A stretch of DNA of 64,000 bases from Candidatus Multivoradales bacterium (GTDB lineage: Bacteria > Acidobacteriota > Thermoanaerobaculia > Multivoradales > JAHEKO01), in NCBI GenBank assembly GCA_965223755.1, contig CBDCXF010000002.1, positions 733,780 to 797,779 of the forward strand, given 5' to 3'. Below the pieces are notes generated by a model, which was given only the letters and a program-made list of their open reading frames with translations, did not search any database and was not told where the DNA came from. Every line of letters starts with the position of its first letter. Position 1 is the first letter of the stretch. Below, one piece after another: positions 4,907-62,634 of this stretch. The position numbers and the translations under genes were made by a program.

Positions 4907-4931
4907 CCCCGTTTTTTGGTGACTCGGTCCT

Positions 4932-5306: not shown

Positions 5307-5363
5307 GGGGTTCCTCCTGAAAACGATGTGCTGTGAGGTGAGGATCTTTCCTACTGCAGGCCG

Positions 5364-5458
5364 ACCCTATTGTAGATAGCCCCTACTGTAGAAAACCCCT
5401 ACCGTAGATAACCCTTACTGTAGATAACCCCTACTGTAGATAACCCAGACTGCGCAGA
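5364..5458. repeat. 16-bp tandem repeat (CCCCTACTGTAGATAA-like, ~6 copies) spanning the sulfatase stop codon
   Basis: ccctattgtagatag / cccctactgtagaaaa / cccctaccgtagataa / cccttactgtagataa / cccctactgtagataa / cccagactgcgcagac. Last 1.5 copies encode the C-terminal ...SLGYLQ* of the 5431..7848 gene. Period 16 puts TAG/TAA in all three frames. Confidence 0.7.
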
Positions 5459-10007: not shown

Positions 10008-10017
10008 CTCCCTGGCA

Positions 10018-10050
10018 GCTTGTGAAGAACTTCACAAGCTCCTATACTTT
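10018..10050 (+). terminator. Putative intrinsic terminator after the amidohydrolase gene
   Basis: Perfect 10-bp stem GCTTGTGAAG-aa-CTTCACAAGC beginning 11 nt after the TAA stop, followed by tcctatactttgcc. T-tract is weak. Confidence 0.45.
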
Positions 10051-10120
10051 GCCGTTGCAGGGCAGCCCGCAGAGCATCTCGGGCTGCCTTTGCGTGTAAC
10101 CGTTCACTCCAACCAGCATC

Positions 10121-11473
10121 GTGGCTGTTCATCGTTCTCAACGAGGTCTTGACCTTCCCATTCTTGGGCAGGCGCGGCCGGAAACCGAAGTCGCCTCGAC
10201 GCCCAAGTACGTCGCCGTGCTGGGCTCAGAGTCCATCGGCCTTAAGCCGACAATGCGCGTGCAGGCCGGCGATCGGGTGCGCCCGGGAGAACCGCTTTTC
10301 GAGGACAAAAAGAACCCCGGCGTCGTCTACACCTCCCCCTTCGGCGGCACCGTTGAGGCCGTGCATCGGGGCGAACGCCGCGCGTTTCTTTCTCTGGTCA
10401 TCGCCGTCGATGAGTCGGCCGAACCGGTGTCGTTTGAGGCCTACAACGGCAAGGCCCCGGAGGAGCTTTCCGGCGACGAGATTCGCGCTCTGCTGTTGGA
10501 ATCCGGAGAATGGTCGGCGATCCGCTCTCGTCCTTTTGGGCGCGTCGCCAAGCCCGGCGACAGCCCTGCTGCGATCTTGGTCAACGCCACCGACTCCCAG
10601 CCGCTGGCGCCAAATCCGATCGGCACCATTGCCGGCCGCGAAGATGAGTTCCGCGCCGGCGTCCAGCTTTTAACCGGCTTGACCGAAGGCAAGGTCTATG
10701 TGACCACGGCGCCCGGCTACTCCCTGGAACTGCCCGAGAACGATCGCGTACGCCACGAAATCTTCTCCGGGCCGCATCCTGCGGGAACCGCCGGCTACCA
10801 AATTCATCGCCTGGCCCCGGTAAGCGCGGAACGAACTGTTTGGCATCTCGACGCCCAAGAGGCCGTAGCCTTGGGTCACTTGGCGCTGACCGGCACCATC
10901 GACAGCCAACGCGTAGTCGCCTACGGCGGGCCTGCGGCGGACGACGCTCGCTGGCTACGTGTTGCCCGGGGTGCTTCGATCTTCGAAATCCTGCAAGCCG
11001 AATCCAATGCCGATGTGCGAACCATCGCCGGGTCGGTTCTCTCCGGCCGGCAGGTCACCGACTCAGAAACAGCATTCCTGGGTCGTTTCGATCGGCAGAT
11101 CTCAGCCATTGACGAAAACCGCGAGCGCGAATTCCTGGGCTGGCTGAAGCCTGGCGGCAATTTGTTCTCACTCACTCGTGCCTTCACTTCAGCATTGAGC
11201 AGCGGCAAGCAATTCGCGTTTGGTAGCTCCACCAATGGCTCGAAGCGTGCCATCGTGCCGATCGGTCTTCACGAACGGGTGAACCCCTTCGACTTCGAGC
11301 CCACCTTTTTGCTCAAGGCACTGCTGATGCAGGATCTCGAGCAAGCAGAGGAGCTCGGCTGTCTGGAGCTGGTGGAAGAGGACGTCGATCTGTGGACCTT
11401 CGTCTGTCCCGGCAAGAACGACTATCGATCGGCTTTGCGCGGCGTCCTCGACGAACTGGAGAGGGGCAACTGA
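10121..11473 (+). CDS. nqrA: Na+-translocating NADH:quinone oxidoreductase subunit A
   Basis: GTG start. N-terminal RGLDLPILG(Q/A) motif and length (450 aa) match NqrA. First gene of contiguous nqrABCDEF. Confidence 0.9.
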
Positions 11474-12690
11474 TGCAGTGGCTCCGTCGCCAGTTGGACC
11501 GTCAGGAAAAGCACTTCCGCCCCGGAGGCAAGCTCGCCAAGTTCTACCCGCTGTGGGAGGCGCAGGACACCTTCCTATATACGCCGGGCGAGACCACCTC
11601 CGGTCCCGCCCACGTGCGCGACGGCCTCGACCTCAAGCGCATGATGATGACAGTGGTTTTTGCCTTGACCGGTTGCGTGGCGATGGCGATGTACAACACC
11701 GGCTACCAGATCCATAACGCCATCGCCGCAGGGGCGCAGCCGCTCGACAACTGGCGAACCGCGTTCATGGGCACCCTGGGCTTGACTTTCGACCCGGGTA
11801 GCTTTGCCGCCAACTGGATTCATGGCGCGCTCTACTACCTGCCGGTGGTGATCGTTACGCTCGCCGTCGGTGGTGCTTGGGAAGCGCTGTTCGCGATCGT
11901 GCGCAAGCACGACATCAACGAAGGTTTCCTGGTGACGTGGATGCTCTTTCCCCTGATCCTGCCGCCGACCATTCCACTGTGGCAGGTGGCCCTGGGCATC
12001 AGCTTTGGCGTGGTACTCGGCAAGGAGATCTTCGGCGGCACTGGAATGAACATTCTCAACCCGGCCCTCACCGCCCGCGCTTTCTTGTTCTTCGCCTATC
12101 CGGCTGAGATTTCCGGCGATCGCGTTTGGACCGCCGCCGACACCTCAATTGACGCTGTTTCCGGGGCTACCGCTTTGGCCAACGCCGCGACCCATGGCAT
12201 GGCGGGGATCGCCGGCCTCGATTGGTGGGACGCCTTTCTGGGCTTCATCCCCGGCTCAATGGGAGAGACATCGGCTCTCGCCTGTCTCATCGGCGCTTTG
12301 ATCTTGATCGCCAGCGGCATTGGATCGTGGCGCATCATGCTCGGTGTGGTGCTGGGGTCAACGGTTACGGCCGCGCTGCTCAACGCCATCGGTTCGGAGA
12401 CCAATCCGTTCTTCGGCATGCCCATTTGGTGGCACATGGTGCTCGGCGGTTGGGCCTTTGGCGCGGTCTTCATGGCGACGGATCCGGTCTCGGCCGCCCA
12501 GACTCAGCGCGGACGCTGGATCTACGGCCTGCTGATCGGCGTCTTCGCGATCCTCATTCGCGTGGTCAACCCGGCCTATCCCGAGGGCATGATGCTGGCC
12601 ATTCTGCTCATGAACGTGTTCGCCGCCACCATCGACCACTACGTCATACGCGGCAACATCAAACGGCGGAAGGAACGCTATGCAGCGTAG
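11473..12690 (+). CDS. nqrB: Na+-NQR subunit B
   Basis: Internal ATG overlapping nqrA stop (TGATG). [38 protein letters not shown] is the canonical NqrB N-terminus. Polytopic membrane protein with FMN-attachment region. Confidence 0.9.
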
Positions 12691-39807: not shown

Positions 39808-40170
39808 CTAGTCCTCCATCGGTTGGGTCGCCACCTCGGTATCCGCGTCCGGGTCGGGGCAGCAACGGTCAACGGCATCAGCCATGTTTCTGAGCCAGTT
39901 CGACAACTCCTGATAGCGCACGGTGTAGCGCACTTCGCGACCTACCTTCCGTGACTCGATGACGCCGGCTTCGCGCAGGGTCGCCAAGTGCCTGGAAACC
40001 ACCGACAGGTCCACCGAGCAACAGGAAGCTGCCTGGCTTACCGTCTGCGGCTGGCCGCAACAACCCACCAACGACTGAAAGATCTCCAGTCGACAGGGGT
40101 CGGACAGCGCCCGAAAAATGTGTGCGTCCTCAGGGGTCACGTTGGCCGGTTGTAGAACCTTCATTGCCAT
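39808..40170 (-). CDS. ArsR/SmtB family metalloregulatory transcriptional repressor
   Basis: HTH SDPCRLEIFQSLVGCCGQPQTVSQAASCCSVDLSVVSRHLATLREAGVIESRKVGREVRYTV with Cys-rich metal-site candidates (CCG, CC, C-terminal CC). Start at internal ATG. Confidence 0.65.
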   Translation of the reverse strand: MAMKVLQPANVTPEDAHIFRALSDPCRLEIFQSLVGCCGQPQTVSQAASCCSVDLSVVSRHLATLREAGVIESRKVGREVRYTVRYQELSNWLRNMADAVDRCCPDPDADTEVATQPMED

Positions 40171-40243
40171 CACGAAGACAACTATAGCACATTTGCACAA
40201 ATATGCAAGTATTTAATTCGAGTCGCTACGCTAAAGTCCTTCC

Positions 40244-41305
40244 GTGAACTTCTCGGTCCTACTTGAATCGATTGTCGAGCATCTACCGGGGATTGCCGTC
40301 ACGGTGCTGGTGTTCCTCATCGCCGCCCTTGCTCACTTTCTCCTCAACAAGCGTTGGCGCCCGATTGCCGCGGCACGGTTGCGCCTGCAGGTCAGCATAT
40401 TCGCCATCTGGGTGTTGGCTCTGTTGTTCGCTTTGGTCACCATTCCGATGGACTCCGATCTGCGCGGCTCCTTGCTCACCCTCCTCGGAATCGTCCTTTC
40501 CGCAGCGATCGCGCTCTCCTCCACCACCCTGCTCGGCAACGCCATGGCGCGAGGCATGCTCATGGCTTTCGACAACGTCAAGATCGGCGATTTCTTGCGC
40601 GTCGACGGCCATTTTGGGCGCATCACCGAGATCGGCCTCTTTCACACCGAGATTCAGACCGAGAACCGTAACCTCACTACCATCCCCAACCTCTATCTGG
40701 TTGGCAATCCCCACACCGTGTTTCCTGCCTCAGGGACCATTGTGTCAGCGACGCTGTCGCTGGGCTACGATGTCGCCCACAGCCAAGTGCGGGCGGCGCT
40801 TCTCACCGCGGCCGAAGAAGTCGGACTGGAGAAAGCCTTTGTTTCGGTCATCGAACTGGGCGACTTCTCGATTACATATCGCGTCGCCGGACTGCTGAGC
40901 GACCTCAAACAACTGGTGTCGACGCGTTCGAAATTGCGCATCGCGGCTCTCGATGCACTTCATGGTGCCGGCATCGAGATCGTGTCTCCCGGCTTTCTCA
41001 ACTTGCGCGAGTATCCAAAAACGCAGCGGTTCATCCCCAGTCCCGCGGAAACGGAAGTTACAACTTCCTCGGGCTCTCCCGAAGATTTGATGTTCGATAA
41101 GGCCGATCGAGCCGAACTCTTGGCCGAACTCCAACTCAGCCAAGGCCAACTGGTTGACGCCCTGGCCAAAGTCGCCGAAGAACTCAAAGAAGCCGAAGGC
41201 GACCGCGCCGTAGCGCTTGAGAAGGAGCTGCGGAATATAGAACGACGACAAGCTCGCCTGGAGGCGTTTATCCATCGCACGGAAGATCGGCTAAGAGATT
41301 CCTAG
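40244..41305 (+). CDS. Mechanosensitive ion channel, MscS family
   Basis: 3 N-terminal TM helices followed by the MscS beta-domain block IGDFLRVDGHFGRITEIGLFHTEIQTENRNLTTIPNLYLVGNPH. 353 aa. Confidence 0.75.
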   Translation: MNFSVLLESIVEHLPGIAVTVLVFLIAALAHFLLNKRWRPIAAARLRLQVSIFAIWVLALLFALVTIPMDSDLRGSLLTLLGIVLSAAIALSSTTLLGNAMARGMLMAFDNVKIGDFLRVDGHFGRITEIGLFHTEIQTENRNLTTIPNLYLVGNPHTVFPASGTIVSATLSLGYDVAHSQVRAALLTAAEEVGLEKAFVSVIELGDFSITYRVAGLLSDLKQLVSTRSKLRIAALDALHGAGIEIVSPGFLNLREYPKTQRFIPSPAETEVTTSSGSPEDLMFDKADRAELLAELQLSQGQLVDALAKVAEELKEAEGDRAVALEKELRNIERRQARLEAFIHRTEDRLRDS

Positions 41306-41377
41306 GGTATGCAATGGGGGGCAATGACGCATCGCTCGTCTAATTAAAGAAAGCGGAGTACCGACTAGGAAAGCGTA

Positions 41378-41923
41378 ATGGAAGATTTGGAGCAGTACCG
41401 CCCAGCCCTGCGACGATTCTTAGCTCGCCGAATGGTGGCGTATGAAGAGATCGATGACCTGGTTCAAGAAGTTTTTCTTCGGGTACATGCGGCTGCCGCC
41501 AAGAAACCCCTGCGGTCCCCAAAAACTTTCCTGTTCACCACCGCAAAGAACCTCATAATCGATCGTCAGCGACGTCGGTTCGTGCGCGGCCCGAAGTGGA
41601 CTGTCGAGGATTTCGACGAGATCGCACAGCCACAAATTTCTCCGGAAGAGAGCGCCTCGAACTCTGAGCAAGCGGCCATTCTGTGGGGTGCCATTAAGCG
41701 TCTTCCACCTCGTTGCCGTATCGCTCTCGTCCTCAGGAAGTTCCATCATTTGAGCTACAAGGAAATTGCCACAGAGATGGAGATTTCGGAGAAGACGGTG
41801 GAGAAACACCTGGCACGGGCTCTGACGCTGTGCCAAGAACACTTATCCGATATGGAAAGCTCCAGCTTGATCGACTTTGAGGAATTTCGCCTCAAGCGGC
41901 TAGCGGCCAACCGAGAGACGTAG
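41378..41923 (+). CDS. ECF sigma factor, FecI-like
   Basis: Region 2 DDLVQEVFLRVH...FLFTTAKNLIIDRQRRR and region 4 HTH LPPRCRIALVLRKFHHLSYKEIATEMEISEKTVEKHLARAL. Followed by FecR and STN-TonB transducer. Confidence 0.8.
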   Translation: MEDLEQYRPALRRFLARRMVAYEEIDDLVQEVFLRVHAAAAKKPLRSPKTFLFTTAKNLIIDRQRRRFVRGPKWTVEDFDEIAQPQISPEESASNSEQAAILWGAIKRLPPRCRIALVLRKFHHLSYKEIATEMEISEKTVEKHLARALTLCQEHLSDMESSSLIDFEEFRLKRLAANRET

Positions 41924-41929
41924 CTGATT

Positions 41930-42892
41930 ATGAGTTCAGACGACGCCGAAAAACGACGGATCTACGATGAGGCCGCGGATTGGTTGATTCAACAGGATCA
42001 CACTGAGGACTCCGCTGATAGAGCGGCTGGATTGCGGCAGTGGCTCCTCGCCAATCCCGCACATAAAGACGCCTACCATGAACTCCGCAAAATCTGGCTG
42101 GAGATGGACGATCTCGGCCCGCAATCTTGGGGCGAAGACAAGGCCGTAAAGCACGAGCCAGTAAAGCCTTGGTACAGATGGGCGGCGGCCGCGTTACTCG
42201 TCGCTCTGGGAGCTCTCACTTTCGCGATGTCGAACCGGAATGCCCCACAACACCAACTGGTCAAGACGGGTACAGCCAGACATCAAAAGCTGACCCTCGA
42301 AGATGGTAGCCAATTGCATTTAAGCGCCGAAACAACGATCTACATCGAAATGAATCAACGCTCGCGACAGATTGAGTTGCGTGAAGGTGAAGCATTGTTT
42401 TCAGTGGCCCCCGATGAAACAAGACCTTTCGTTGTTCGCACATCTGCGGGTGCGATCGCCGCGTTGGGTACCCAGTTCAACGTTCGTGCAAGAAACGGTG
42501 AAGTCGATATCGCCGTAGTTGAAGGTAGGGTTCTGGTCATTCCCGAGTCTGACTCACCGGTCGAGGTGGCTTCTGCCGAAGCCGCCAGCCTCGAAAAATC
42601 CGGGGCAAAGACGAGGGTCATGGCTGCCGGCGAGATCGATCGCACTTTGTCTTGGCGCAAGAAAGTTCTTGAATTCGACGACGTCCCGTTGGCGACCGTT
42701 CTGGAGGATCTAGACCCCTACGTCAAGGGTTCGATCTTCCTCCTTGGTGATGAGGCTCGCTCTCTACGAGTCGGTGGCGTCTTGCGTGTGGGTGAAGACC
42801 AAGACCCCATCCAGAGCTTGGCGCGGTCGCTCACTCTGGAGACAGTCCAGCTCGGGGATGCAGTGACGGTCGTTTGGCGCCGCTCACCATAA
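41930..42892 (+). CDS. FecR-family anti-sigma factor / sigma regulator
   Basis: N-terminal cytoplasmic domain AADWLIQQD...LRQWLLANPAHKDAYHEL, single TM (WAAAALLVALGALTFAM), periplasmic FecR domain. Confidence 0.8.
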   Translation: MSSDDAEKRRIYDEAADWLIQQDHTEDSADRAAGLRQWLLANPAHKDAYHELRKIWLEMDDLGPQSWGEDKAVKHEPVKPWYRWAAAALLVALGALTFAMSNRNAPQHQLVKTGTARHQKLTLEDGSQLHLSAETTIYIEMNQRSRQIELREGEALFSVAPDETRPFVVRTSAGAIAALGTQFNVRARNGEVDIAVVEGRVLVIPESDSPVEVASAEAASLEKSGAKTRVMAAGEIDRTLSWRKKVLEFDDVPLATVLEDLDPYVKGSIFLLGDEARSLRVGGVLRVGEDQDPIQSLARSLTLETVQLGDAVTVVWRRSP

Positions 42893-43004
42893 GAAAATTC
42901 GGCTTCAAGACGAATCAGGCGGCAATGGGGGATTTACCTCCTTAGCACGTCTGAAACAACAAGGTCGGGGCCGATCTTGGCCAAATAACCTGTTGGGAGG
43001 TTCG

Positions 43005-45599
43005 ATGACATACCGTCGTGCGTTTGCGTTTACTGGCTTGGCACTGGCGGCTGCCATGGTCTATGGCCAGCCCGCCAATGCAGAAGCAACTCGATTCGAG
43101 ATAGAGGCCCAGGGACTCGCCAGTGCTTTACGTGACTTTGCTCGGCAGGCTGATTTTCAGGTGATCTACGAACAGGAGCTTGTCGCCGACCTTGCCTCAC
43201 AGGGAGTCAGCGGCCACTACAAACCGACGCGGGCCTTGGAAATATTGCTCCATGACACATCGCTGGTGTACGAGGTGACGGAAACCAATACGGTTACAGT
43301 CATGGCCCCGGCCATGGACCCCGCAAACACAGATCCTAACGATGCCGAAGGAGATCAAGAGTCTGCCCCGTCGGCGACCAACGAAACGTCCGAGAGTGAC
43401 GAGTCGCAAGAAGAACCTGAATCAGAACAAGACGACGGCGCCGAGACTACCAACACCGCCTCGACGGAAACGACTCAGAGCGTGGATGAGGCTAGTGAAA
43501 GTTTTGTCGATCGAATCCTCGTTACTGCGTCCAAGCGCGGTGAAACGGATGCCCAAGAACTAGCGAGCACCATCTCCGCCTTTAGCCCCGAGAAGTTGGA
43601 TCGCCTCGACGCCCTGGAGTTCGAAGATGTGATCGTCCAAGTGCCGGGCACCAACTTCATCGACAACGGCGGCCCCGGACGCGGTCAAGAGATCGCGTCG
43701 ATCCGCGGACTTTCTCCGGTCGCCGACAACACCGTCTCCATCGTGGGGCAATACCTTGATGGCGCGCCGCACTTTGGCCGCAATTACAGGTTATTCGACA
43801 TTGGCGAAGTCTCAGTTTTGCGCGGTCCACAGGGTACTTTGTGGGGATCGCAGGCCATGGGTGGCTTGATCTCCTACCGGTCCAACCGTCCCGATGTTTC
43901 AGCGGCAAGTTGGAGTTTCAAAACGGATCTGATGGACACTTCTGGAAGCTCTGGAATTGGTCACAGAGTCTCGGGACATCTGAACATCCCTCTAGCCAAA
44001 GACAAGTTCGCGATCCGGATAGCAGCCCACCGTGTTGACGAAAGCGGCTACATCGACAACGTCGCCACTGGAGCCACCGGCGTCAATGATGTCGAAGAAA
44101 CCGCTTGGCGTCTTTCCGCCTTGGCGAAACCGTCCGAAAACGTCACATTGACGGCCATCTACCACGGCAACGATTTGACCGCGGACGCTCCAACGTTTTT
44201 CGATCTCGATCTTGGCGAGTTCCAAATCGATGTGCCGTTCAGCGAACTTCCGGCAACGCAAGAATTCGATTTGTTCAACTTCATCATCGATGTCGATTTG
44301 AGCTGGGCCAACCTTAGTTACACAGCTTCGCTGTTCGACAATGACAACGTTTACCAAGACGCTCAGCGTGGCTTCTTTGGTTTCATTCCCGTAGCTCGAT
44401 CCGACACCATCCTTCGTCAAGAATCCACCACCCACGAGCTTCGCCTCGCGTCAAAAAATAGTGGCCGTTTCAACTGGGTGGCGGGCCTGTATCTCGACGA
44501 CCTCGAACAAATCGATCTTTCCGAAAGTCGCGAAGTGGAGGATCCCTTCAATCCCGGCACCACTGTGATTGGCGACGGAGCCCTACTCTTCTTCCTCGGT
44601 GGGCCTCAAACATTTGAGGAGCAAGCGATCTTCGGCGAACTCACGATCGAACTGGCTCCCGACTGGGAGTTGCTTCTCGGAGGCCGCTACTTCGATTGGG
44701 AGGTCGACAATGACCAAGACACAGTATTTCTTGGCACAAGCTTCGGTCAGGAAGTTGGCACTGTTGGGGATAGCGACAGCTTCTTCAAAGGCCAGATCAC
44801 CCATCATTTAAGCGACGACCGCTTCCTCTACTTCACACGTTCTGAGGGCTTTCGCATTGGTGGTTTCAACCCCTTCGTCGGACCCAACTTCAACAGCTCC
44901 CTCGACTTTCTGGAGTTCAAGCCCGATCGCTTGATCAACTATGAACTGGGATTTAAATCGGCTTGGGCCAACAACAGGCTGCTCTTGAACACCGCCGTCT
45001 ACCAGATGGATTGGGAAGACGTACAGACCGTGGTTCGCGATTCCATAGGGGTGTTTGCTTTTACCGCCAATGCTTCAGACTTAGAAGCGGAAGGCTTCGA
45101 AGTTGAACTGGCGACCCAAGACCTGCTCGCAAAAGGTGTCTACGCCAACGCTAACTTCACCTACAACACCAACGAATTCACCAGGGACGCGGAAGTGTTC
45201 CCTGGGGTGGGTCGACTCCTAGTTGAAGCCGGCGATTCGCTACGTCGCACGCCCAAGAACACCTGGTCGATGGATGTCGGCTATGACTTTCTCATCTCTG
45301 ACCGCATCGCCGGTTACGTGCGCGGTAATTACTGGCACAAGGACGCGACCACCACCGAGGGCTTCAATGGTGGCGATGGTGCGGTACCGATTCCGGCGCA
45401 GAACGTGGTTAACGCCTCCACAGGCGTCTACATGGGGGATTGGGAATTCAAGTTGGTTATTGACAACCTCACCGACGCCATGCCTCTGCTGCAGGTCTTC
45501 TCCGCCGCTCCCGCCGGCCTGCCGGGAGGGATGACAGCGTCTAGGGCCTCGAGTATCCGGCCGCGCACCATTTCTCTACAGCTCAAATACACACCGTAA
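43005..45599 (+). CDS. TonB-dependent outer-membrane transducer with N-terminal STN signalling domain
   Basis: ATG 43005 with gggagg RBS. Signal peptide. STN domain (FEIEAQGLASALRDFARQADFQVIYEQELVADLASQGVSGHYKPTRALEILLHDTSLVYEV). Plug (DRILVTASKRGE...) and 22-strand barrel ending in terminal aromatic ...LQLKYTP. Confidence 0.85.
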   Translation: MTYRRAFAFTGLALAAAMVYGQPANAEATRFEIEAQGLASALRDFARQADFQVIYEQELVADLASQGVSGHYKPTRALEILLHDTSLVYEVTETNTVTVMAPAMDPANTDPNDAEGDQESAPSATNETSESDESQEEPESEQDDGAETTNTASTETTQSVDEASESFVDRILVTASKRGETDAQELASTISAFSPEKLDRLDALEFEDVIVQVPGTNFIDNGGPGRGQEIASIRGLSPVADNTVSIVGQYLDGAPHFGRNYRLFDIGEVSVLRGPQGTLWGSQAMGGLISYRSNRPDVSAASWSFKTDLMDTSGSSGIGHRVSGHLNIPLAKDKFAIRIAAHRVDESGYIDNVATGATGVNDVEETAWRLSALAKPSENVTLTAIYHGNDLTADAPTFFDLDLGEFQIDVPFSELPATQEFDLFNFIIDVDLSWANLSYTASLFDNDNVYQDAQRGFFGFIPVARSDTILRQESTTHELRLASKNSGRFNWVAGLYLDDLEQIDLSESREVEDPFNPGTTVIGDGALLFFLGGPQTFEEQAIFGELTIELAPDWELLLGGRYFDWEVDNDQDTVFLGTSFGQEVGTVGDSDSFFKGQITHHLSDDRFLYFTRSEGFRIGGFNPFVGPNFNSSLDFLEFKPDRLINYELGFKSAWANNRLLLNTAVYQMDWEDVQTVVRDSIGVFAFTANASDLEAEGFEVELATQDLLAKGVYANANFTYNTNEFTRDAEVFPGVGRLLVEAGDSLRRTPKNTWSMDVGYDFLISDRIAGYVRGNYWHKDATTTEGFNGGDGAVPIPAQNVVNASTGVYMGDWEFKLVIDNLTDAMPLLQVFSAAPAGLPGGMTASRASSIRPRTISLQLKYTP

Positions 45600-45603
45600 C
45601 CAC

Positions 45604-47118
45604 GTGACTGTGTCCTGGAAGAAGCCGCTCACTGCCGCATTCGTTGGCTTGGCACTTACCGCTTCGGCGCCAAGCGCCGGCAGCGACCTCGCCCTGGTCG
45701 GAGGAACGGTCATCTCTGCAACAGGGGATGCACCGATCGCGAACGCCGTCGTGCTTGTGCGCGATGGCGTCATTGAATCTGTGGGACCGCGAAGCGCGAT
45801 TTCCATCCCCAAAGACATCCAAATCGTCAACACCACCGGGCAGTGGGTCACTCCCGGCCTGATCGACACCAACGTTCACCTGATTTTGACCACGGTGCCC
45901 GAATTCTTCGTCAAGTACGAAGACCGCCTGGTCGACGTCGCGATTCAGTCCGCTCAAGTAGGCCTCAAATACGGTCTGACGACCATGGCCGACAGTTGGG
46001 GGCCACTGCCCCCGTTACTGGAGGCCCGCGACCGTATCAATCGAGGTGAGGTTCCGGGCAGCCGCGTGTTGATCGCCGGCAACATTGTCGGGACTGGCGG
46101 ACCGTTCAGCTCCTATTTCATGCGCAGTTGGGATCCCCGCGGTCTCAGCTTGCGCTACGGCGGCTGGGTACATCCAGCAATCCAGTCACGGATCGATGTC
46201 TTGTGGGAGGACGATGTAGGCCCCTCTCTACTCGCAATGACTCCTGCCGAGGTGGGCGAAGCCGTGCGCAACTACATCGCCAAAGGGATCGATTTCCTCA
46301 AGGTCGGTGTCAGCGCACACGGAATCGCCCCCGTCGAGCCGATGCTCTTTTCGGAAGCGGCGATGCGGGCGATGCGGGAAGTGGCGCGGGAATTGGCCGT
46401 CCACTTTCAAACGCACACGTTCACCGTCGAGAGCCTGCGGGTCGCCGCCGAATTGGAGCCCGAACTGCTGCAACACCCCAATGTGATGAGCCCCCCCTGG
46501 GCGTACGCGACAGAAGCCCAGCGCGAGTCGATCAGACAATCGATCGAACTCTTGAAAGCCCAGGGGGCGTACGTCGCTTTGATGTCAATCCCGGAGCGCA
46601 ATCAAGTTCAGATTTCGTCTCAGTGGGATGCGTCCGAACATCCAGATAAGCCCCATCTCAACCGCATCATGGAATCGAGGAAGCCGTGGCTAACGGAGGA
46701 AAACTTCGAACTCCGAGCCGAGGGGGTCCGCGTCTGGCTCGAAAGCGGGCTGCGCTACACCCTGGCCACAGACCAGGGCCCGGAGGCTGCCGACTTGGGC
46801 CCCACCGTGTGGGGCCGGCTGGGCCGAGCGCATTTTGACCGTCTGCAGGGCCTTCAGGATTGTGGCGCCGAACCGATGGATATCTTGATCGCCGCCACGC
46901 GCAACGGAGCCGAAGCCTATGGTCTCGGCGATGAACTGGGGACCATCGAAGTCGGCAAGAAGGCCGACCTGCTGGTATTGGATGCCGATCCTCTCGAAGA
47001 CATCGACAACCTACGGCAAATCGCCGAAGTCATCCAAAACGGCGTCGTCGTGGACCGCGATTCGCTGCCGCTCAACCCGGTTCTGGACTCAGATCCGGAA
47101 GCTCCCTGGCCGCACTAA
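45604..47118 (+). CDS. Secreted metal-dependent amidohydrolase family protein
   Basis: GTG start, signal peptide. PGLIDTNVHLIL metal-binding HxH-like N-terminus. C-terminal GTIEVGKKADLLVLDADPLEDI typical of amidohydrolase_1/3 enzymes. Confidence 0.7.
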   Translation: MTVSWKKPLTAAFVGLALTASAPSAGSDLALVGGTVISATGDAPIANAVVLVRDGVIESVGPRSAISIPKDIQIVNTTGQWVTPGLIDTNVHLILTTVPEFFVKYEDRLVDVAIQSAQVGLKYGLTTMADSWGPLPPLLEARDRINRGEVPGSRVLIAGNIVGTGGPFSSYFMRSWDPRGLSLRYGGWVHPAIQSRIDVLWEDDVGPSLLAMTPAEVGEAVRNYIAKGIDFLKVGVSAHGIAPVEPMLFSEAAMRAMREVARELAVHFQTHTFTVESLRVAAELEPELLQHPNVMSPPWAYATEAQRESIRQSIELLKAQGAYVALMSIPERNQVQISSQWDASEHPDKPHLNRIMESRKPWLTEENFELRAEGVRVWLESGLRYTLATDQGPEAADLGPTVWGRLGRAHFDRLQGLQDCGAEPMDILIAATRNGAEAYGLGDELGTIEVGKKADLLVLDADPLEDIDNLRQIAEVIQNGVVVDRDSLPLNPVLDSDPEAPWPH

Positions 47119-56079: not shown

Positions 56080-56559
56080 CTAGGTCGCCTCGCGCCTCAG
56101 GACCTGCTCCCAAATGCCACGCAAATGCTTGTCGGAGCCGCCGCGACGAAAGTACTCCATCTTCATCAGAATCACGTCCTCCGGCGTAGCGAATGAGGCT
56201 TCGAACCCCGGCTGAGCTTGGACTCGAACCGCCCGGGCAAAACGACTCTTGTTGAACGGCGTCGACTCCGCGACCATGAAGTCAACTTTGAGCCCCGACC
56301 CTGGGTGAATTAGATTGAATTGTCCCTCGCGTCCGACAGCTTCTTTCGCCGCCTCTTCGCTTATATAAAAATCGGGCGAAGAAAACTCTTCGACCAACAA
56401 GGATGCATTCTTCGCAGAGAGCGACACGACGATGTCGATGTCATTGGTGAACCGAGGTTCGCCGTAAAAAATGGTCGCAATCGACCCAGTGACGAAGTAG
56501 GGAATACCGAGGTCTTCCAGAGCTTGCACAACCCTGCGAAGAAGCTCATCCTGTGCCAC
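56080..56559 (-). CDS. Minimal nucleotidyltransferase (pol-beta superfamily) domain protein, candidate toxin/antitoxin component
   Basis: GTG 56559 preceded by AGGAGG 7 nt upstream. hG[GS]x12DIDI motif in YFVTGSIATIFYGEPRFTNDIDIVVSL. 159 aa. Overlaps the 3' end of the preceding small ORF by 14 nt. The ORF-track entry extends a further 45 codons upstream. Confidence 0.5.
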   Translation of the reverse strand: MAQDELLRRVVQALEDLGIPYFVTGSIATIFYGEPRFTNDIDIVVSLSAKNASLLVEEFSSPDFYISEEAAKEAVGREGQFNLIHPGSGLKVDFMVAESTPFNKSRFARAVRVQAQPGFEASFATPEDVILMKMEYFRRGGSDKHLRGIWEQVLRREAT

Positions 56560-56761
56560 GCGATAGCCTCCTGGAGACTTCCTTGCGAGTCTTTGACTTC
56601 GACCATTCCGGGTGACTGGCCTCAAGGTGACTTGTGAGCATCCGCCGTGCCGCAGAGTACATTTCGCTGGCGATGCGCAGCCGCTCCGCTCCACTCATCG
56701 AACGCAATACAGCAGCCATTTCGGGATCGAGGCGTTCGATTGACGCAAGCTCAGAACCCAT
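56546..56761 (-). CDS. Small (71 aa) helical protein encoded immediately upstream of and overlapping the nucleotidyltransferase gene. Putative partner (antitoxin-like)
   Basis: ATG 56761 with AAAGGT 3 nt upstream. MGSELASIERLDPEMAAVLRSMSGAERLRIASEMYSAARRMLTSHLEASHPEWSK... Contains an R-x4-H motif (RMLTSH) but is shorter than canonical HEPN domains. Confidence 0.4.
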   Translation of the reverse strand: MGSELASIERLDPEMAAVLRSMSGAERLRIASEMYSAARRMLTSHLEASHPEWSKSKTRKEVSRRLSRGTG

Positions 56762-56805: not shown

Positions 56806-59394
56806 CTAGGGGTTCTCAATCAGCAACAACTCATTGGCTACCTCGCCGCGGGCAACGGCCAACCGCGTGAGGTCGGGGGAGACGGCAAAGGCGTGGATGT
56901 CGCCACTGCGGAAGTCGGTGACCTGGCGTGCTTCGCCCGACTCCACCGACACTTCGAAGATGTTCATGGTGCCCTCGACGATGCGAACTTCATAGATCGA
57001 CTCGTCACTAGCCCATGGCGAAGTTACAACGGAGTGAGACTCGAGAATCTTCGCCGGTGTCGATGCGTCGGCCGCGAAGATCCCAGTGCGGTAGGCACCG
57101 TCAACCAGAATATGAGAGTTGAAGCGAGCTCCGTCGGGTGAGAATTGCACAAGATGACTCGAGCCGTCATAGATCGGGATTGGCTCGCCCCCGTTCCAGG
57201 GCACGCGCACCATGCGCAGCCCTGTGTCAACAAGAAGGGGAAAGAACACCCATTCGCCATCTGGGGACAAGCCTGGGTTGCCATCGGTGATTTTGTCCGG
57301 AGGCGATAACCTGCGCGCCAAGCGCGCGTCGTCGTCGCTGAAACCGTAGACCCCGTATCGCTCCCCGCGCCAACCTCCACCGTAGACAACCTTGTCTGCG
57401 GCAGCAGCGGGTTGGTGAGCCCCATGCGTTGTCAGCACCCTATCGGAGCCGGTCTCCAGATCGACCTGCCACAGTTGCCAGTCCTCACCATGCGGTGCGT
57501 GGTAGATGAGAGTCTGGCTATCACGCCACGCGACACCGTCGGCACCATCACGCGGCCCCGAACTCGTGGCGACCGGCCTTGCCGTCTCGGGAGCATCGAC
57601 AGGAACGACCCACAACTGGGACCGGACGTCGTGACGAATGGTCACCACGAGCGCGCCGTCGGCGGAGCGGTCGCATCCTGAGTAGTCGTGGAAATCGGTT
57701 GAGAGCGGCGAAGTTGTCCCTGAGGCCCGGTCCAACCTCCAGATTTGGTGCGCCGAACCTTCGCTGCGGCCAGTGACCAAAATCGACTCTCCTTGCGAAT
57801 CAGGACAGATGTCGGAGATAGTGCTGAACGCTATGGTTGAAGGAATCGATACCGGATCGCCCCCGTCAGCGGAAACGACGAACAAACCCTCAGTGCGCTC
57901 GCTACCGATTTCCACCAAGAGGTCGCGCGAAGAGCTATCCCAAACAACACTCCAAAACTCCCGACCTTCAAGTTCCGTTCGTGAACGCAGCGCTCCGTCC
58001 TCCACCGACACCACCTCGAGTACGTTCCAGGGATCGTTGAACTCGTCGGCGCGCACCGCCGCCACCCACTGTCCGTCCGGGGAAATTGCGGCGTTGATGA
58101 CTCGCTCCAGAAGACGTTCCGAGGCGCCGCCCAAGATCGGGACTCGGTGCAGCTCGAACGCCGCCCCGGATTGACCGGAGACGTAGTAAAGATAATTGCC
58201 ATCACCGCTGAAACGGAGACCGCCGATAGAAAAGTCGTGTGCCGGACCGGAGACCAATTCGATGTCGGAACCGGTCTCGACCTGCTGGAGACGCACGGAA
58301 TGGGCTTGCAGCGAAGTACTCTCGTACGCGACGTAGCGACCATCGGGAGAGATCGCCGAAGAATTCGGGGTCCCCTGAGTGGTCAACCTCCGAACCTCTT
58401 GCCGCGCCGCCGGCTCGTCCCCGGGATCGCGTTGCAGCCAGAGGACCGCGAGCGCTACCGCCGCGACTGCCGCCAATGCCCACGGAACCCACCGCCAGCG
58501 TGGCTTAGCGGGAGCAACCGCTGCCGGTACCTCCAACGAGCCCGAATCCAACTCCTCTTTGAGTTCCAACAAATCGTTGCGCAGGTCGAGAGCCGTCTGG
58601 TAACGCCGCCGCGGGTCCTTCTGCAGGCAGCGGCGCACGATCCGGCCAAGATGCCTAGGGAACTGCGACCGCACTTCGGTGACCGAAGTGGGATCGTCAC
58701 GCAGGATTGAACTGATCACCGACATGCCGCTCTCCCCCTGAAAGGGGCGCTCACCGGTGGCCATCTCGTAGAGCATCACCCCGAGAGAAAAGATGTCGCT
58801 GCGGTGGTCGACGGGCTTGCCCTCCGCTTGCTCGGGCGACATGTAGGCCACCGTTCCCAGAATGCGGCCTTCTTCGGTCAGGCTTTCGGTTGAGCCGATG
58901 CTCTCGGCCAGATCCATTCCTTCAGCGGTCTTGGCGAGGCCGAAATCGAGTACGCGGACGCGATCCTCAGTGTCGATGAGAACGTTGGCCGGCTTGAGGT
59001 CACGGTGAGTGATGCCTTGTTTGTGGGCGGCGGCCACGGCCTCCGCCAGCGGCACCGCGACTTCGAAAAAATTTGCCAAGGCCATTCCCTGACGCGGAAT
59101 GTGTTTCGCCAGCGGCTTACCGTCCACCAACTCCATGACCAGGAAGAGCTGTTCGTCCTCTTCTTCGATCGAATGAAGGGTGACGATGTTGGGATGCTGC
59201 AACGCCGCAACCGTCTTGGCTTCTCGCTCGAAGCGGGTCCGGCGCTGGGCGTTATCGGAGAGGGATCGAGGAAGTATCTTGAGTGCGACCTTGCGCCCCA
59301 GCCGTTGATCTAGGGCCTCATACACTTCTCCCATGCCGCCCTTGCCGAGCAGTTTGACGATCTTGTAGTGGCCTAGTAGGCGACCGGGTTCCAC
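56806..59394 (-). CDS. Hanks-type Ser/Thr protein kinase with TM segment and C-terminal TolB-like (WD40-like) beta-propeller repeats
   Basis: GTG start with [22 protein letters not shown] (G-loop), VALKIL (K), [19 protein letters not shown]-like [22 protein letters not shown]. Repeated SPDG-x-VAY / DG-x-YLYYVS propeller blades over ~500 aa. Confidence 0.8.
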
Positions 59395-59400
59395 AGCCTC

Positions 59401-59444
59401 TCCAAAAAAACCGGCGCTGATTGTACCGGTTCGTTGGTTTTCAG
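59401..59444 (-). promoter_or_regulatory. Hairpin + U7 (terminator-like) immediately upstream of the kinase RBS
   Basis: Minus-strand reading ...ACCGGtacaatcagcgCCGGTTTTTTTGGAGAGGCTGTG: 5-bp GC stem, 11-nt loop, seven U's abutting the Shine-Dalgarno. Also flanked by an A-run on the other side (bidirectional form). Confidence 0.3.
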
Positions 59445-59559
59445 CCGGGCTTCGAGGCCGGCGCGCCGAGATTCAGACATGCAGTATTCTCAGTAGCAGC
59501 GACCGCCGTTTTCGGCGCATCGTGAATTCTCATTGCGCCGTTCGGCCTGCGACACCAAG

Positions 59560-61161
59560 ATGCCTAAGCGATCGCCCCATGAGCAGCGTATGGCGAAGAT
59601 CAGCCGACGCTTGGTCCCCTCCGAGTTCCTTGACGACCCAGTCCTCCGGGCAGCAATTCAGCGTAGCGCTCAAATGGACATCGCGGCTCGGAAGGAGCTT
59701 CGGGATCTCCGCAGGAAAATCGACCTCCTAGGGCACAGGGTATCGAACTCATCTTCTGGGCTTCGAATGGCGACGGAACTGCGTAGGTTCTGGCTCGAAT
59801 ACTTCGAGCGGTTCTTGCAGCACGGTCCTCATTCGTTACCTTCAAGTTTCAATGTAATCGAAGCCTTTTTGGAGTTTGAAGCGGAGCTATTTACGTTCGC
59901 GCTGCGCCCCGAGAATGAACATATTCTGGCGTTCGGTCACTACCTAGACTGGTACACCGCAGGCGGCTTTCCAGACGCGCCAGGATCGCTGGTCGACATA
60001 ATGGACGAAGGACTCATCTACTCGTACGACTTTGTTCTTTCTTCTGATCGACCACTTCTCAGAGCTGGTTCATCCAAACTTTCCATTGCCGGCATCTCCC
60101 TGGTAAGGCACGGTGACGAACTATCCGTGCTCCTACTTGCCGGGGAAGACCCACCGGTGCTGGCTGAACACTCAGATGACGCAGTTTCCGCTTCTGGCAA
60201 AGAGGCACTACGCCCAGCAGCAAAGCTAAGCAGCGAAGACAGGATGCTGGAAGGCTTCCCAAGTTGCAGTCGGGTCTTGCTTGCTACCCGCTTCGACCTT
60301 TCGAGTAGCTCAAGCGATGTTCGTTACCTGCTGGTGGACTTAGGCAACTCGTACCAAATCGCCACCGATGACTATGATGCGATCACGCGCGCCTTTCGTT
60401 TTGAGCCTTTTGATCCGCGGCTCACCAAACTCCGAGAAGCCCAAGCCGCCAGTTTAGCCCGGTATGCGGATCTGTTCTCAGCCTCAGCCTCTCTGATGTA
60501 CCTACCGGCGTTTTTCCTTGCTCAATCCCACAACTGGCACGACACAGAATTCCTTACGGAGCTTGGCATTGAGATCGAGGACCCGAAGACCAAGCGCTCA
60601 CACCGCGAGATGGGAGGCAGGTACTTAAGACCGAGGCGACGGGTTCGATGCCTGACAGCACCTTATGCTGCAACGTCTGCTGGTTTTAGCGTACGACCAC
60701 CGGAGTTGGAGTTCGCGTCAGAAGGCTACTGGAAGGCGCTGCCTCCCAGTCAGTTCGGCACGACGCCCGATGGACACGCGATCGTAGGCAAAACGTGGGT
60801 CAAGCGCACTGAGGCCTGGGAGTCAAGCACGCCGGCTGAATTTCTGGCGCAGAGAGCAACCCCCACACGCACCTGTCAGGAGTACGTTTACGTCGCACGT
60901 AGCCCTTCTCACGAATCGGATCTGTATAAGGTGGGCATGACAACGAGGGACGTTCCCACAAGGCTCTCCGAGCTTTCTGCCTCGACAGCTGCGCCGCTAC
61001 CGTTTGAGACCCTCGCCCGCTGGCCCGTCGCAGATGCTGCGGCTGCAGAAGCAGAGGTCCACGATGCGCTAGCCCAGTATCGCGTGTCACCTCGGCGAGA
61101 ATTTTTCCACGCGCCGCTCTCTACGATCATACAAACCATCGACCGAGTGCTGGCCCGCTAA
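59560..61161 (+). CDS. Protein with ~430-aa N-terminal domain of unknown function and C-terminal T5orf172 / MUG113 (GIY-YIG-like putative nuclease) domain. Lower-GC, probably horizontally acquired
   Basis: C-terminal ~90 aa YVYVARSPSHESDLYKVGMTTRDVPTRLSELSASTAAPLPFETLARWPVADAAAAEAEVHDALAQYRVSPRREFFHAPLSTIIQTI fit the T5orf172 pattern (YKIG-T, R--EL, E--lH--l---R---EFF). Stretches of 45-55% GC vs ~65% flanks. Start could also be TTG 59533 or ATG 59590. Confidence 0.6.
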   Translation: MPKRSPHEQRMAKISRRLVPSEFLDDPVLRAAIQRSAQMDIAARKELRDLRRKIDLLGHRVSNSSSGLRMATELRRFWLEYFERFLQHGPHSLPSSFNVIEAFLEFEAELFTFALRPENEHILAFGHYLDWYTAGGFPDAPGSLVDIMDEGLIYSYDFVLSSDRPLLRAGSSKLSIAGISLVRHGDELSVLLLAGEDPPVLAEHSDDAVSASGKEALRPAAKLSSEDRMLEGFPSCSRVLLATRFDLSSSSSDVRYLLVDLGNSYQIATDDYDAITRAFRFEPFDPRLTKLREAQAASLARYADLFSASASLMYLPAFFLAQSHNWHDTEFLTELGIEIEDPKTKRSHREMGGRYLRPRRRVRCLTAPYAATSAGFSVRPPELEFASEGYWKALPPSQFGTTPDGHAIVGKTWVKRTEAWESSTPAEFLAQRATPTRTCQEYVYVARSPSHESDLYKVGMTTRDVPTRLSELSASTAAPLPFETLARWPVADAAAAEAEVHDALAQYRVSPRREFFHAPLSTIIQTIDRVLAR

Positions 61162-61425
61162 AGGTAACGACCCCGCAGGCATTCAGGCCGAAGTGTCTTT
61201 CGAGGCATGGCTGGATGGGTCTCGATCTGCACGCCATTCTCCTGTCCTTTGAGAACATTGATTAGGCGGACAGCTCCTCACCCATGAGCCGGACCTTTCT
61301 ACAGCCTGTCTAGGGTGAGCCATCTCATTGCGAAGATCCCTCGAGCGGCCGGAACTTGGCCAGCCCCCTTCTGATTGGACGGCTGAGCGACAGAACGGCA
61401 CCTGACCGCGTCGATCTAGGGGGGG

Positions 61426-61668
61426 CTAGTCCTCGTCAGACCGTCGATGAGCGCGGTAGACCAAACAGCCGAGGATTCCCACGATCGTGAAGGGTGTGGC
61501 GAGAAGAAAGAGAATTCCGCCGCGAAGCGCGCCGGCGAGCTCCTGCCCTTCAGGAGAGGCAAGAGCGTTGCGGCACAGTGCGCACTGGGCAGCAGTCGGC
61601 TCGGCCGCGAGCAGCCAAATTGCGGCCACAACCGTAAGGGCCGCCGCCAAGGGCCAACGCCGAATCAC
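61426..61668 (-). CDS. Small membrane protein (signal/TM - CALC motif - C-terminal TM) downstream of cytochrome oxidase subunit IV
   Basis: GTG 61668 overlapping coxIV stop (GTGA). VIRRWPLAAALTVVAAIWLLAAEPTAAQCALCRNALASPEGQELAGALRGGILFLLATPFTIVGILGCLVYRAHRRSDED (80 aa). ORF-track lists a longer 178-aa frame that overlaps coxIV. Confidence 0.4.
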   Translation of the reverse strand: MIRRWPLAAALTVVAAIWLLAAEPTAAQCALCRNALASPEGQELAGALRGGILFLLATPFTIVGILGCLVYRAHRRSDED

Positions 61669-62009
61669 GTCCCTCCCATCCCCAGGATGCGCAGCCCGTC
61701 GGGAACAATGAGCGCGAAGAGAATGAATCCGTTCACCAGCAGACCCAACAGCACCGCCATTCCCAAAGCCAGTCGCTCGAACCGCAGATGCATGAAGAAG
61801 GCGGCTATCAGCCAGGCTTTGAGCAACATGGCCACCACCAGAATGAAGATCAACAGGCCTCGTGGCAGACCTCCCGACGTGGACCCCAACGCCTGCGCGG
61901 TGGGGCGATCCACGAACAACATCACCAGGGTGACCAACAACAGGATTCCCCAGATGCGCCAATAGAACCCGTATCCGGGTGTGTTCTCGTGTGCCATAAC
62001 CAACCTCAA
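61665..62009 (-). CDS. Cytochrome c oxidase subunit IV (prokaryotic CoxD/CtaF-type)
   Basis: 114 aa, three TM helices. MAHENTPGYGFYWRIWGILLLVTLVMLF...KAWLIAAFFMHL typical of bacterial subunit IV. Confidence 0.7.
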   Translation of the reverse strand: MRLVMAHENTPGYGFYWRIWGILLLVTLVMLFVDRPTAQALGSTSGGLPRGLLIFILVVAMLLKAWLIAAFFMHLRFERLALGMAVLLGLLVNGFILFALIVPDGLRILGMGGT

Positions 62010-62028: not shown

Positions 62029-62634
62029 TCAGATGAGATAAAAGCAGGTGAAGACGAAAACCCAAACGAGGTCGACGAAGTGCCAGTAAAGACCGGCCAT
62101 CTCGACGCCCTCCGGTTTGGTAATCCCTTTCGCCCAGCGTAGCGCGGTAATCGCCAGAATCACCACACCGGAGAGCACGTGAGTTCCGTGGAAACCGGTG
62201 ATGAGGAAGAAGTAGGCACCGAACTGTGCCGACCCCCAAGGATTCGAACTGAGCGTCGCACCGGCGTGGATGAGGTGCGACCACTCAAAAGCCTGCATGA
62301 CCAAGAAGACCAACCCGATCGCCGCCGTCAGCCAAAGGAAACGCGAAGTGGCCTTGCGGTCGCCCACCGCGCTCGCCCGCACTGCGCTTGCCATGGTCGC
62401 GCTGGAGGTGATCAAGATGAAGGTCATCGCGGCGATGAAGGTGATGTTGAAGACGGCGCTTTGATCGGGCCAGGTCGCAGTCGTCAGGCGCGCGAATCCA
62501 TAGGACGCCAAGAAGCCCGCGAACAACAATCCATCGGTAATGATGAAGACCCACATCATCACCTTGCGCCAACCGGAGTCGGTGGCGTCGGGGTTTGCCG
62601 CCAAGATGTCTCTATCTAGGACCTGCTCAGCCAT
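62029..62634 (-). CDS. ctaE: Cytochrome c oxidase subunit III
   Basis: 201 aa. GFHGTHVLSGVVILA and YWHFVDLVWVFVF motifs. Confidence 0.85.
   Translation of the reverse strand: MAEQVLDRDILAANPDATDSGWRKVMMWVFIITDGLLFAGFLASYGFARLTTATWPDQSAVFNITFIAAMTFILITSSATMASAVRASAVGDRKATSRFLWLTAAIGLVFLVMQAFEWSHLIHAGATLSSNPWGSAQFGAYFFLITGFHGTHVLSGVVILAITALRWAKGITKPEGVEMAGLYWHFVDLVWVFVFTCFYLI

Follow-up and report, generated by a model that had tools for sequence, protein, structure and literature searches.

Why should a solitary nuclease gene lie between a protein kinase gene and a cytochrome oxidase cluster, and what would control its cutting? This question was raised by a 64,000-nt stretch of DNA from Candidatus Multivoradales bacterium (contig CBDCXF010000002.1, positions 733,780 to 797,779 of the forward strand), which is referred to here as the window. 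On its + strand, positions 59560-61161 hold one intact open reading frame (ORF) of 533 amino acids (aa) plus stop, placed in the ORF list between a Ser/Thr kinase gene (56806-59394, - strand) and a cox cluster (from 61426, - strand). Single-protein nucleases must tell self from non-self without a methyltransferase or a guide. The C-terminal part of the predicted protein is a T5orf172 nuclease domain, and the preliminary description of this DNA had regarded the gene as an orphan. The results showed that the finding is richer than an orphan T5orf172 gene, because the gene is one of a sizeable family that lacks annotation; this family has a new N-terminal module (the N-module), and its effectors have been swapped naturally in defence contexts. 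We believe, with a probability of roughly 0.55, that the gene is a mobile, horizontally acquired, stand-alone two-module defence or conflict nuclease, in which the N-module controls and the nuclease executes. Its relatives among anti-phage genes make it probably an undescribed single-gene defence nuclease. This reading is based on the architecture, the catalytic residues, effector swapping, the patchy spread, composition, and the defence-island and prophage-hotspot contexts. From these we infer the nuclease activity, the trigger and the anti-phage phenotype of the family.

The N-module family and its C-terminal nuclease domains

Residue numbers follow the 523-aa numbering (start ATG 59590) unless stated. 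The gene and its parts are as follows:

59560-61161, + strand: family gene, complete (ORF list; identical database protein P0001; N-terminal extension aligning with relatives)
59590-60834, + strand: N-module, aa 1-415, conserved and uncharacterised (family alignments; AlphaFold models; charge and conservation profile)
59830-60375, + strand: acidic beta-rich core of the N-module, aa 81-262 (charge and conservation profile; secondary structure from models)
60880-61149, + strand: T5orf172 (GIY-YIG-type) nuclease domain, aa 431-520 (Pfam PF10544; Foldseek against BFVD; Odn alignment)

A word-index search returned 21 full-length homologues with 30-62% identity, all of the same architecture. A hidden Markov model (HMM) of the N-module was built from a 15-sequence alignment and searched exhaustively against 1.84 billion representatives. 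It matched 563 cluster representatives at E<=1e-3, 444 at E<=1e-10 and 307 at E<=1e-30. These numbers show that the label of orphan protein was wrong. Most members of the N-module family are 520-580 aa long.

The C-terminal effector of 88 full-length members was assigned by a Pfam scan. T5orf172 was found in 80 of them, HNH in seven (P0085, P0109, P0115, P0118, P0136, P0164 and P0165; the HNH domain of P0085 spans aa 493-540), and DUF4365 in one (P0064, aa 477-598). In short-Argonaute SPARDA systems, DUF4365 serves as the nuclease effector. P0040, one of the 80 T5orf172 members, carries an extra N-terminal TIR domain. PADLOC models matched only the effector domains of the 88 proteins. By N-module identity, the HNH variants are mutually nearest relatives, and P0064 nests among T5orf172 members, with 48% N-module identity to P0040. 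Because the HNH variants group together and the DUF4365 variant nests among T5orf172 members, the alignments indicate at least two independent effector replacements within the family. The N-module is thus the constant, conserved module on which the C-terminal nuclease (T5orf172, HNH or DUF4365) is swapped. This is the most informative feature of the gene, and it had been missed before. Together with the TIR fusion, the swaps provide a natural genetic argument for the N-module as a control unit.

Two further copies were observed in unusual states. On the Methylorubrum extorquens AM1 megaplasmid NC_012811.1, a stretch unannotated in the record (L049, 6896-8230) encodes the N-module only, in 444 aa and without a nuclease domain; this copy ends shortly past the GRTWV motif and may be decayed or effector-less. 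In a metagenome-assembled genome (MAG) of Niabella sp. (L013, 9923-11556), the family gene is split into the overlapping ORFs 9923-10585 and 10537-11556, which suggests a frameshift, reflecting either a pseudogene or an assembly error.

The C-terminal domain of the window protein could be assigned with confidence. Pfam PF10544 matched aa 441-530 of the 533-aa reading over profile positions 1-100 of 101 (E 2e-15 to 5.4e-16; 59.4 bits against a cut-off of 20), and MUG113 matched with E 9e-14. The AlphaFold model has a predicted local distance difference test score (pLDDT) of 84-93 over aa 431-523. In Foldseek searches against BFVD, 56 matches were obtained at E<=1e-3, among them viral T5orf172, Bro-C and 'GIY-YIG nuclease' models. 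The C-terminal 95 aa or so superposed on these models with a probability of 1.0 and a root-mean-square deviation (RMSD) of 1.3-2.5 Å over 86-100 columns. Among the matches listed, the well-superposed ones were essentially confined to the T5orf172 domain, and a few longer alignments had an RMSD of more than 20 Å. When the predicted model was compared with the PDB by Foldseek, no solved GIY-YIG structure was matched. Sequence profiles and predicted fold therefore agree with the preliminary description, which had recognised T5orf172/MUG113 in the last 90 or so residues, and structure prediction gave this end of the protein the nuclease-like fold whose lack was to refute that description.

The marked residues of the T5orf172 domain are Y434, K447-G449, R458, E487, H491 and R503-E504-F505-F506. 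In the 88-member alignment, K447, G449, R458, E487, H491, R498, R503, E504 and F506 are at least 90% conserved. Odn (Gp88) of ICP1 is a nuclease in which mutation of E180, equated with I-TevI E75, abolishes all cleavage (PMC8263062). Its segment TE(180)QRIH aligns with AE(487)AEVH of the window protein, both by motif and by BLASTP, in a pairwise match that is weak (E 0.12). Because the catalytic residues are kept and E487 aligns with the essential E180 of Odn, the nuclease effector looks active.

The N-terminal 430 or so residues had been described as free of recognisable motifs. This was borne out: Pfam, NCBIfam, PHROG and PADLOC gave no match there, and at E<=1 Pfam placed no family on the N-module in any of the 88 members. 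PDB profile searches with the N-module had zero matches, and Foldseek against the PDB found nothing at E<0.1, whether the full model or that of the N-module served as query. The literature that was searched held no description of the N-module or of its combination with T5orf172. The model itself is confident. AlphaFold2 with the family alignment gave a pLDDT of 79.5 and a predicted template modelling score (pTM) of 0.83 for the full length, and 76 and 0.79 for the N-module alone. Of the N-terminal modelling that had been proposed earlier, the prediction thus succeeded and the comparison with solved structures yielded no counterpart.

In the models, the N-module starts with helices (aa 1-78), continues with a beta-rich core (81-262), in which the long antiparallel part spans 94-259, and further helices (262-311), and ends in a basic, beta-rich tail (313-415). 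Across the 88-member alignment, about 27 of its positions reach 90% conservation or more, many of them charged; R65, E70, R74, E91, E108, R173, E177, R234, R245, D250, D260, D261, W381, G390 and W403 are near-invariant. Conservation within the N-module is highest in the core, which has a family mean net charge of about -12. The N-module as a whole is net acidic (about -8), and basic segments (aa 31-80 and 313-415) flank the core. We regard the core as a candidate site for sensing a ligand or a protein, or for catalysis. A simple hydropathy test found no transmembrane segment (highest 19-residue Kyte-Doolittle mean 1.35). The most hydrophobic 19-residue segment is a helix buried in the model, and the N-terminus is hydrophilic and helical.

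Two identities for the N-module were considered and rejected. The segment GHAIVGKT (aa 395-402, 60772-60795) fits the Walker-A pattern GxxxxGK[ST]. It is probably no P-loop, because the Lys is Arg in most relatives (consensus GRTWV) and the segment is predicted as a beta-strand or with low confidence. An Argonaute/APAZ, PD-(D/E)xK or other known fold was likewise dismissed, as Foldseek against the PDB and the PDB profiles were empty.

The locus and its composition

Three candidate starts were compared: TTG 59533 (542 aa), ATG 59560 (533 aa) and ATG 59590 (523 aa, the start of database copy P0001). Translation from 59560 yields PKRSPHEQRM, which aligns with the N-terminal KRxPHDERM of P0002, P0004, P0005 and others. 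Because this KRxPHxxRM stretch is kept in homologues, ATG 59560 is most likely the best start. The surroundings of the gene are as follows:

59395-59559, no strand: divergent intergenic region, kinase start to family-gene start (sequence; promoter scan)
59404-59431, - strand: hairpin followed by U7, directly 5' of the kinase ribosome-binding site GGAGAGG (59397-59403) and its GTG start (59392-59394) (sequence)
61162-61425, no strand: convergent intergenic spacer of 264 bp, gene stop to end of the cox-cluster ORF (sequence; terminator scan)

The kinase gene (56806-59394, - strand) encodes a Pkinase domain plus a PD40/Tricorn-like propeller. The cox genes on the - strand include COX4_pro (61665-62009) and COX3 (62029-62634). 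The divergent region 59395-59559 presumably holds the promoters of both the kinase gene and the family gene; a promoter scan found 0 sites matching the sigma-70 consensus there. The terminator scan of the 61162-61425 spacer gave no terminator-like site. A 178-aa ORF (61426-61962, - strand) without a Pfam match overlaps the COX4_pro gene, and its C-terminal part (61426-61664), just downstream of COX4, resembles a small membrane protein with a CxxC motif. Beyond the kinase gene, 56080-56761 (- strand) likely encodes a toxin-antitoxin pair, in which a 71-aa Rv0078B-related antitoxin (Pfam E 2.5e-7) overlaps a 204-aa protein with a weak match to AbiEii nucleotidyltransferase toxins (E 1.2e-3, below cut-off). 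The GC content of this pair is 52-56%, as low as that of the nuclease gene.

The hairpin and its U7 run do abut the kinase ribosome-binding site, as had been pointed out. A functional meaning was not upheld. The hairpin has an interrupted stem of about 8 bp, but the region folds no better than its shuffles (z = 0.28), and the terminator scan did not call it. It was thus rejected as a regulatory element. The hairpin-U7 resembles an intrinsic terminator, yet no - strand gene lies directly upstream, and the intervening gene is on the + strand.

The preliminary description had also placed the gene in a strong compositional island, with a GC content of 45-55% against about 65% in the flanks. By direct count, the gene has 56.7% and the interval 59395-61425 has 57.3%, while the window averages 59.8% and the flanks have 58-65%; the lowest 300-bp window had 52.3%. 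The gene is at the 10th percentile among same-size windows of the stretch, and these counts rule out a strong low-GC island. GC at third codon positions (GC3) was 60% in the family gene versus 69-78% in the neighbouring trpA, kinase and cox genes, a deviation of about 10-18 points that is real but modest. The lowest GC of the window (55-56%) was found at 40000-46000, below that of the flagged segment. This region carries several large + strand ORFs, including 42993-45599 (868 aa).

Signs of insertion were sought around the gene. No tRNA was found within about 12 kb, no integrase marks 59395-61425 as an inserted island, and the Rfam search found no family in the segment. The flanking-repeat search returned only short two-copy repeats, none convincing. 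The 13-nt direct repeat CGTYGATCTAGGG (CGTTGATCTAGGG / CGTCGATCTAGGG) brackets the gene at 59303-59315 and 61409-61421, with a spacing of 2106 nt. Its first copy lies within the kinase coding region, and chance alone would produce about one pair of this kind in 2.3 kb. With no tRNA and repeats at chance level, insertion scars were rejected.

Distribution and gene neighbourhoods

The family is widely and thinly spread. Full-length members, mostly from MAGs, were found in one genome each of Nitrospirales, Geobacteraceae and Verrucomicrobiae, and in 'Ca. Multivorans', Niabella and Aliisedimentitalea; the spread includes Bacteroidota and Alphaproteobacteria. Members also occur on large Agrobacterium and Sinorhizobium plasmids, under the NCBI name 'GIY-YIG nuclease family protein'. 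Homologues include WP_174000604.1 of A. vitis T60/94 and WP_065658975.1 of A. tumefaciens. With the patterns used, six full-length matches were found among 185,579 species genomes. In the T5orf172-only loci of the same genome scan, the domain was always N-terminal and the proteins were short.

All-vs-all BLASTP of the neighbour ORFs of 13 loci revealed no conserved partner gene. In 11 of 14 loci, the gene had a lower GC content than its surroundings (by 22 points in the Geobacteraceae genome, 13 in L003, and 10 in L001 and L044). By raw count, defence, toxin-antitoxin or mobile-element genes are neighbours of the gene in about 12 of the 17 loci inspected. The contexts are given here by locus:

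A. vitis plasmid: 'anti-phage deoxyguanosine triphosphatase' 64 bp before the gene; AAA ATPase and helicase upstream; radical-SAM, exonuclease, WYL and TIR downstream
L012: gene between a GmrSD-type type IV enzyme (PADLOC mREase_IV, E 8e-69) and an ApeA-like protein; TraG coupling protein nearby
L007: AbiJ-like protein directly upstream; Septu PtuA (E 1e-232) and a methyltransferase further up
L043 and L044: TIR, HEPN, VapBC, Phd and integrases
L004-L006: PIN-MazE pair
L008: HEPN_AbiU2
L001, L002, L003, L010 and L014: transposases or resolvases; in L014 the resolvase is directly upstream
L047 (IMG/VR prophage-like contig): gene directly after the phage integrase, at the element edge
L048 (IMGVR_UViG_2844888124_000004): P2-like prophage; gene between replication gene A and the portal/terminase genes (gpA-gpQ)

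Experiments have established the gpA-gpQ locus of P2 as a hotspot of anti-phage systems (PMC9122126). In the same prophage region (L048, 4559-10016), two unannotated ORFs lie beside the family gene, 4559-5551 (330 aa) and 9123-10016 (297 aa). They have no Pfam or PADLOC match and may be further cargo genes. A HEPN/ApeA-type protein of about 465-585 aa is directly downstream of the gene in three loci (L043, 10950-12347; L044, 9940-11340; L012, 11802-13559). The L012 copy was not linked to other loci in the BLASTP clustering, a comparison that did not include L043 and L044. This protein may be a recurrent, non-obligate neighbour.

Phages themselves rarely carry the N-module. A tblastn search of 50,697 phage genome records gave no match, and only 2 of 2.9 million IMG/VR contigs (L047 and L048) contain it, both in cargo positions. 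The earlier proposal of a single-gene defence or selfish nuclease fits the lack of a conserved neighbour, the defence islands and the P2 hotspot, and the selfish homing alternative is weakened by the absence from phages. At the level of the window locus itself, a metagenome scan with the C-terminus of the kinase gave distant matches only, and the contig index had no entry for the exact window protein.

Proposed mode of action, rival explanations and known systems

We propose that the protein acts as a soluble single chain, in which the N-module of about 420 aa would be the sensing or targeting and regulatory unit. It would keep the nuclease switched off, or away from the host chromosome, until an infection cue is recognised; this cue could be a protein of the phage, some feature of a nucleic acid or a small ligand. 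The T5orf172 domain would then cleave DNA, either that of the invader or indiscriminately as abortive infection. As an outcome, the population could be protected from phage or mobile DNA without a partner gene. Since the N-module matches nothing in Pfam, PADLOC and the PDB and the protein has no membrane anchor, another recognition principle would be required. Tentatively, and at somewhat less than even odds, we consider the N-module to be an undescribed sensor or possibly enzymatic fold of a widespread single-gene immune family (at least 563 clusters) with a new recognition principle. The gene would then be a new stand-alone defence system rather than a version of SNIPE, of homing endonucleases or of type IV restriction. 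If true, this would add a new sensor domain, plus a new annotation model for the 'GIY-YIG nuclease family protein' entries. The swaps give clear mutational targets, and the members on Agrobacterium and Sinorhizobium plasmids and on the P2-like prophage make the hypothesis testable in tractable hosts.

Several observations weigh against a two-module defence nuclease. No sensor, DNA-binding or enzymatic fold can be recognised in the N-module, whose acidic core argues against simple DNA binding and identifies no ligand. The defence role is guilt by association, drawn from the roughly 12 of 17 inspected loci, and no PADLOC model covers the window protein past the nuclease domain. The compositional deviation is small in the window, and the neighbours are housekeeping genes there, in L009 (ruvA/yebC) and in L011 (gyrB-like). 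The nearest homologues of the kinase are 50-53% identical and show no synteny with the window locus.

A serious rival, although we think it unlikely, is a type IV-like restriction endonuclease dependent on a modification or another DNA feature, whose N-module would directly read a mark of foreign DNA, for instance a hypermodified base, and position the nuclease, so that no methyltransferase is needed. The gene is solitary, with no conserved methyltransferase or partner. One recognition module on GIY-YIG-type, HNH and DUF4365 nucleases is the pattern of modification-dependent enzymes (PMC11037411, PMC12923530), and the basic segments at aa 31-80 and 313-415 that flank the core would also suit such an enzyme. 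However, none of the 88 members has a known modified-base reader domain at Pfam E<=1, no solved reader or restriction enzyme matched structurally, and the N-module is net acidic, most strongly so in its most conserved part. The TIR fusion of P0040 and the SPARDA-type DUF4365 suit sensor-activated systems better. We therefore favour a 'sensor-licensed nuclease' over a 'direct reader of modified DNA', because the effector set is as on sensor-activated immune proteins, the conserved core is acidic, and no DNA-reader domain is present.

Selfish behaviour is improbable. Under this explanation, the gene is a free-standing homing endonuclease or an addictive nuclease, the N-module is a large sequence-specific DNA-binding domain, and spread would occur by cutting empty target sites or persistence by post-segregational killing. 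Phage homing endonuclease genes do often contain T5orf172 together with modular DNA-binding parts (PMC10448857). In every genome a single gene is inserted, each time at another site and between unrelated genes, and a transposase, resolvase or integrase adjoins it in several loci. However, the N-module was missing from all 50,697 phage genomes, its two IMG/VR copies are in cargo positions, and neither flanking repeats nor duplicated targets were found. The Zn-finger CapR, DUF723 and DUF4397 were not found either, and about 27 N-module positions conserved at 90% or more across phyla are unexpected for a domain that tracks diverging targets. Selfish homing is less likely because the N-module is not in phages, the Zn-finger domains were not found, and charged residues are conserved across phyla. 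There is also little chance that the gene encodes a nuclease for cellular DNA repair, recombination or RNA processing that plays no part in conflict and has an incidental neighbourhood signal: the kinase and cytochrome oxidase genes beside it, the ruvA/yebC and gyrB-like neighbours of L009 and L011 and the small compositional deviation in the window would agree with this, but a housekeeping role is unlikely because the distribution is very patchy (six full-length matches in 185,579 species genomes, 563 clusters in 1.84 billion representatives) and the loci are variable, and GC is atypical in most hosts, effectors are swapped, a TIR fusion occurs and known defence genes recur nearby.

With these alternatives weighed, the proposed defence nuclease with its N-module can be compared with known systems. 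PADLOC PDC-S57 was the best PADLOC match (E 7e-20) and matched 80 of the 88 members. The likeness is limited to T5orf172 (profile positions 5-91 of 212), and in PDC-S57 proteins, which are short (about 210-245 aa), the domain is N-terminal. SNIPE (PD-lambda-1) of E. coli, the closest system that has been validated, is a single defence protein in which a transmembrane anchor and DUF4041 are followed by a C-terminal GIY-YIG/T5orf172 nuclease with an essential Glu (PMC13190303). Its DUF4041 binds DNA and the tape-measure, and self is told from non-self by membrane confinement at the injection site (PMC13190303). The window protein is similar in that a single chain of about 490-530 aa carries a C-terminal nuclease behind a larger non-catalytic region, which in SNIPE controls cutting. 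The PADLOC PD-Lambda-1 models matched it with E 1.4e-8 at aa 438-529 of the 533-aa reading, and also matched 62 of the 88 members. However, the profile aligns over the nuclease only (positions 353-448 of 496), the window protein has no DUF4041 (Pfam E<=1, also none in the 88 relatives), and it has no transmembrane or membrane-anchor segment. The membrane-confinement logic of SNIPE cannot apply as such without DUF4041 and the anchor. Because the window protein lacks these two other defining features, it should not be classed as SNIPE.

Odn and the phage T5orf172 homing enzymes share with it an N-terminal targeting domain and a C-terminal T5orf172 domain, in a modular arrangement in which domains are exchanged (PMC8263062, PMC10448857). 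Odn differs in that it has 226 aa and a RepA_N-like DNA-binding domain that is not in the window protein (PMC8263062), and Pfam found none of the CapR, DUF723 and DUF4397 domains of the phage enzymes (PMC10448857). Type IV enzymes include CMoRE, a GIY-YIG modification-dependent enzyme that reads modified cytosine (PMC12923530), and the winged-helix fusion endonucleases, which are modification-dependent and carry a recognition domain on alternative nuclease folds (PMC11037411). They too are stand-alone, lack a methyltransferase and combine a recognition domain with interchangeable nucleases; the window protein differs in a domain order opposite to that of CMoRE, in the lack of a known reader domain or PDB match, and in its acidic N-module. 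Finally, the family differs from the short pAgo/APAZ partners (SPARDA and SPARTA) in being a single chain without an Argonaute or APAZ partner and without sequence or fold similarity to them. The likeness lies in the plan, since DUF4365, HNH and TIR effectors are mounted there on a constant module, and to this set the family adds a GIY-YIG-type nuclease.

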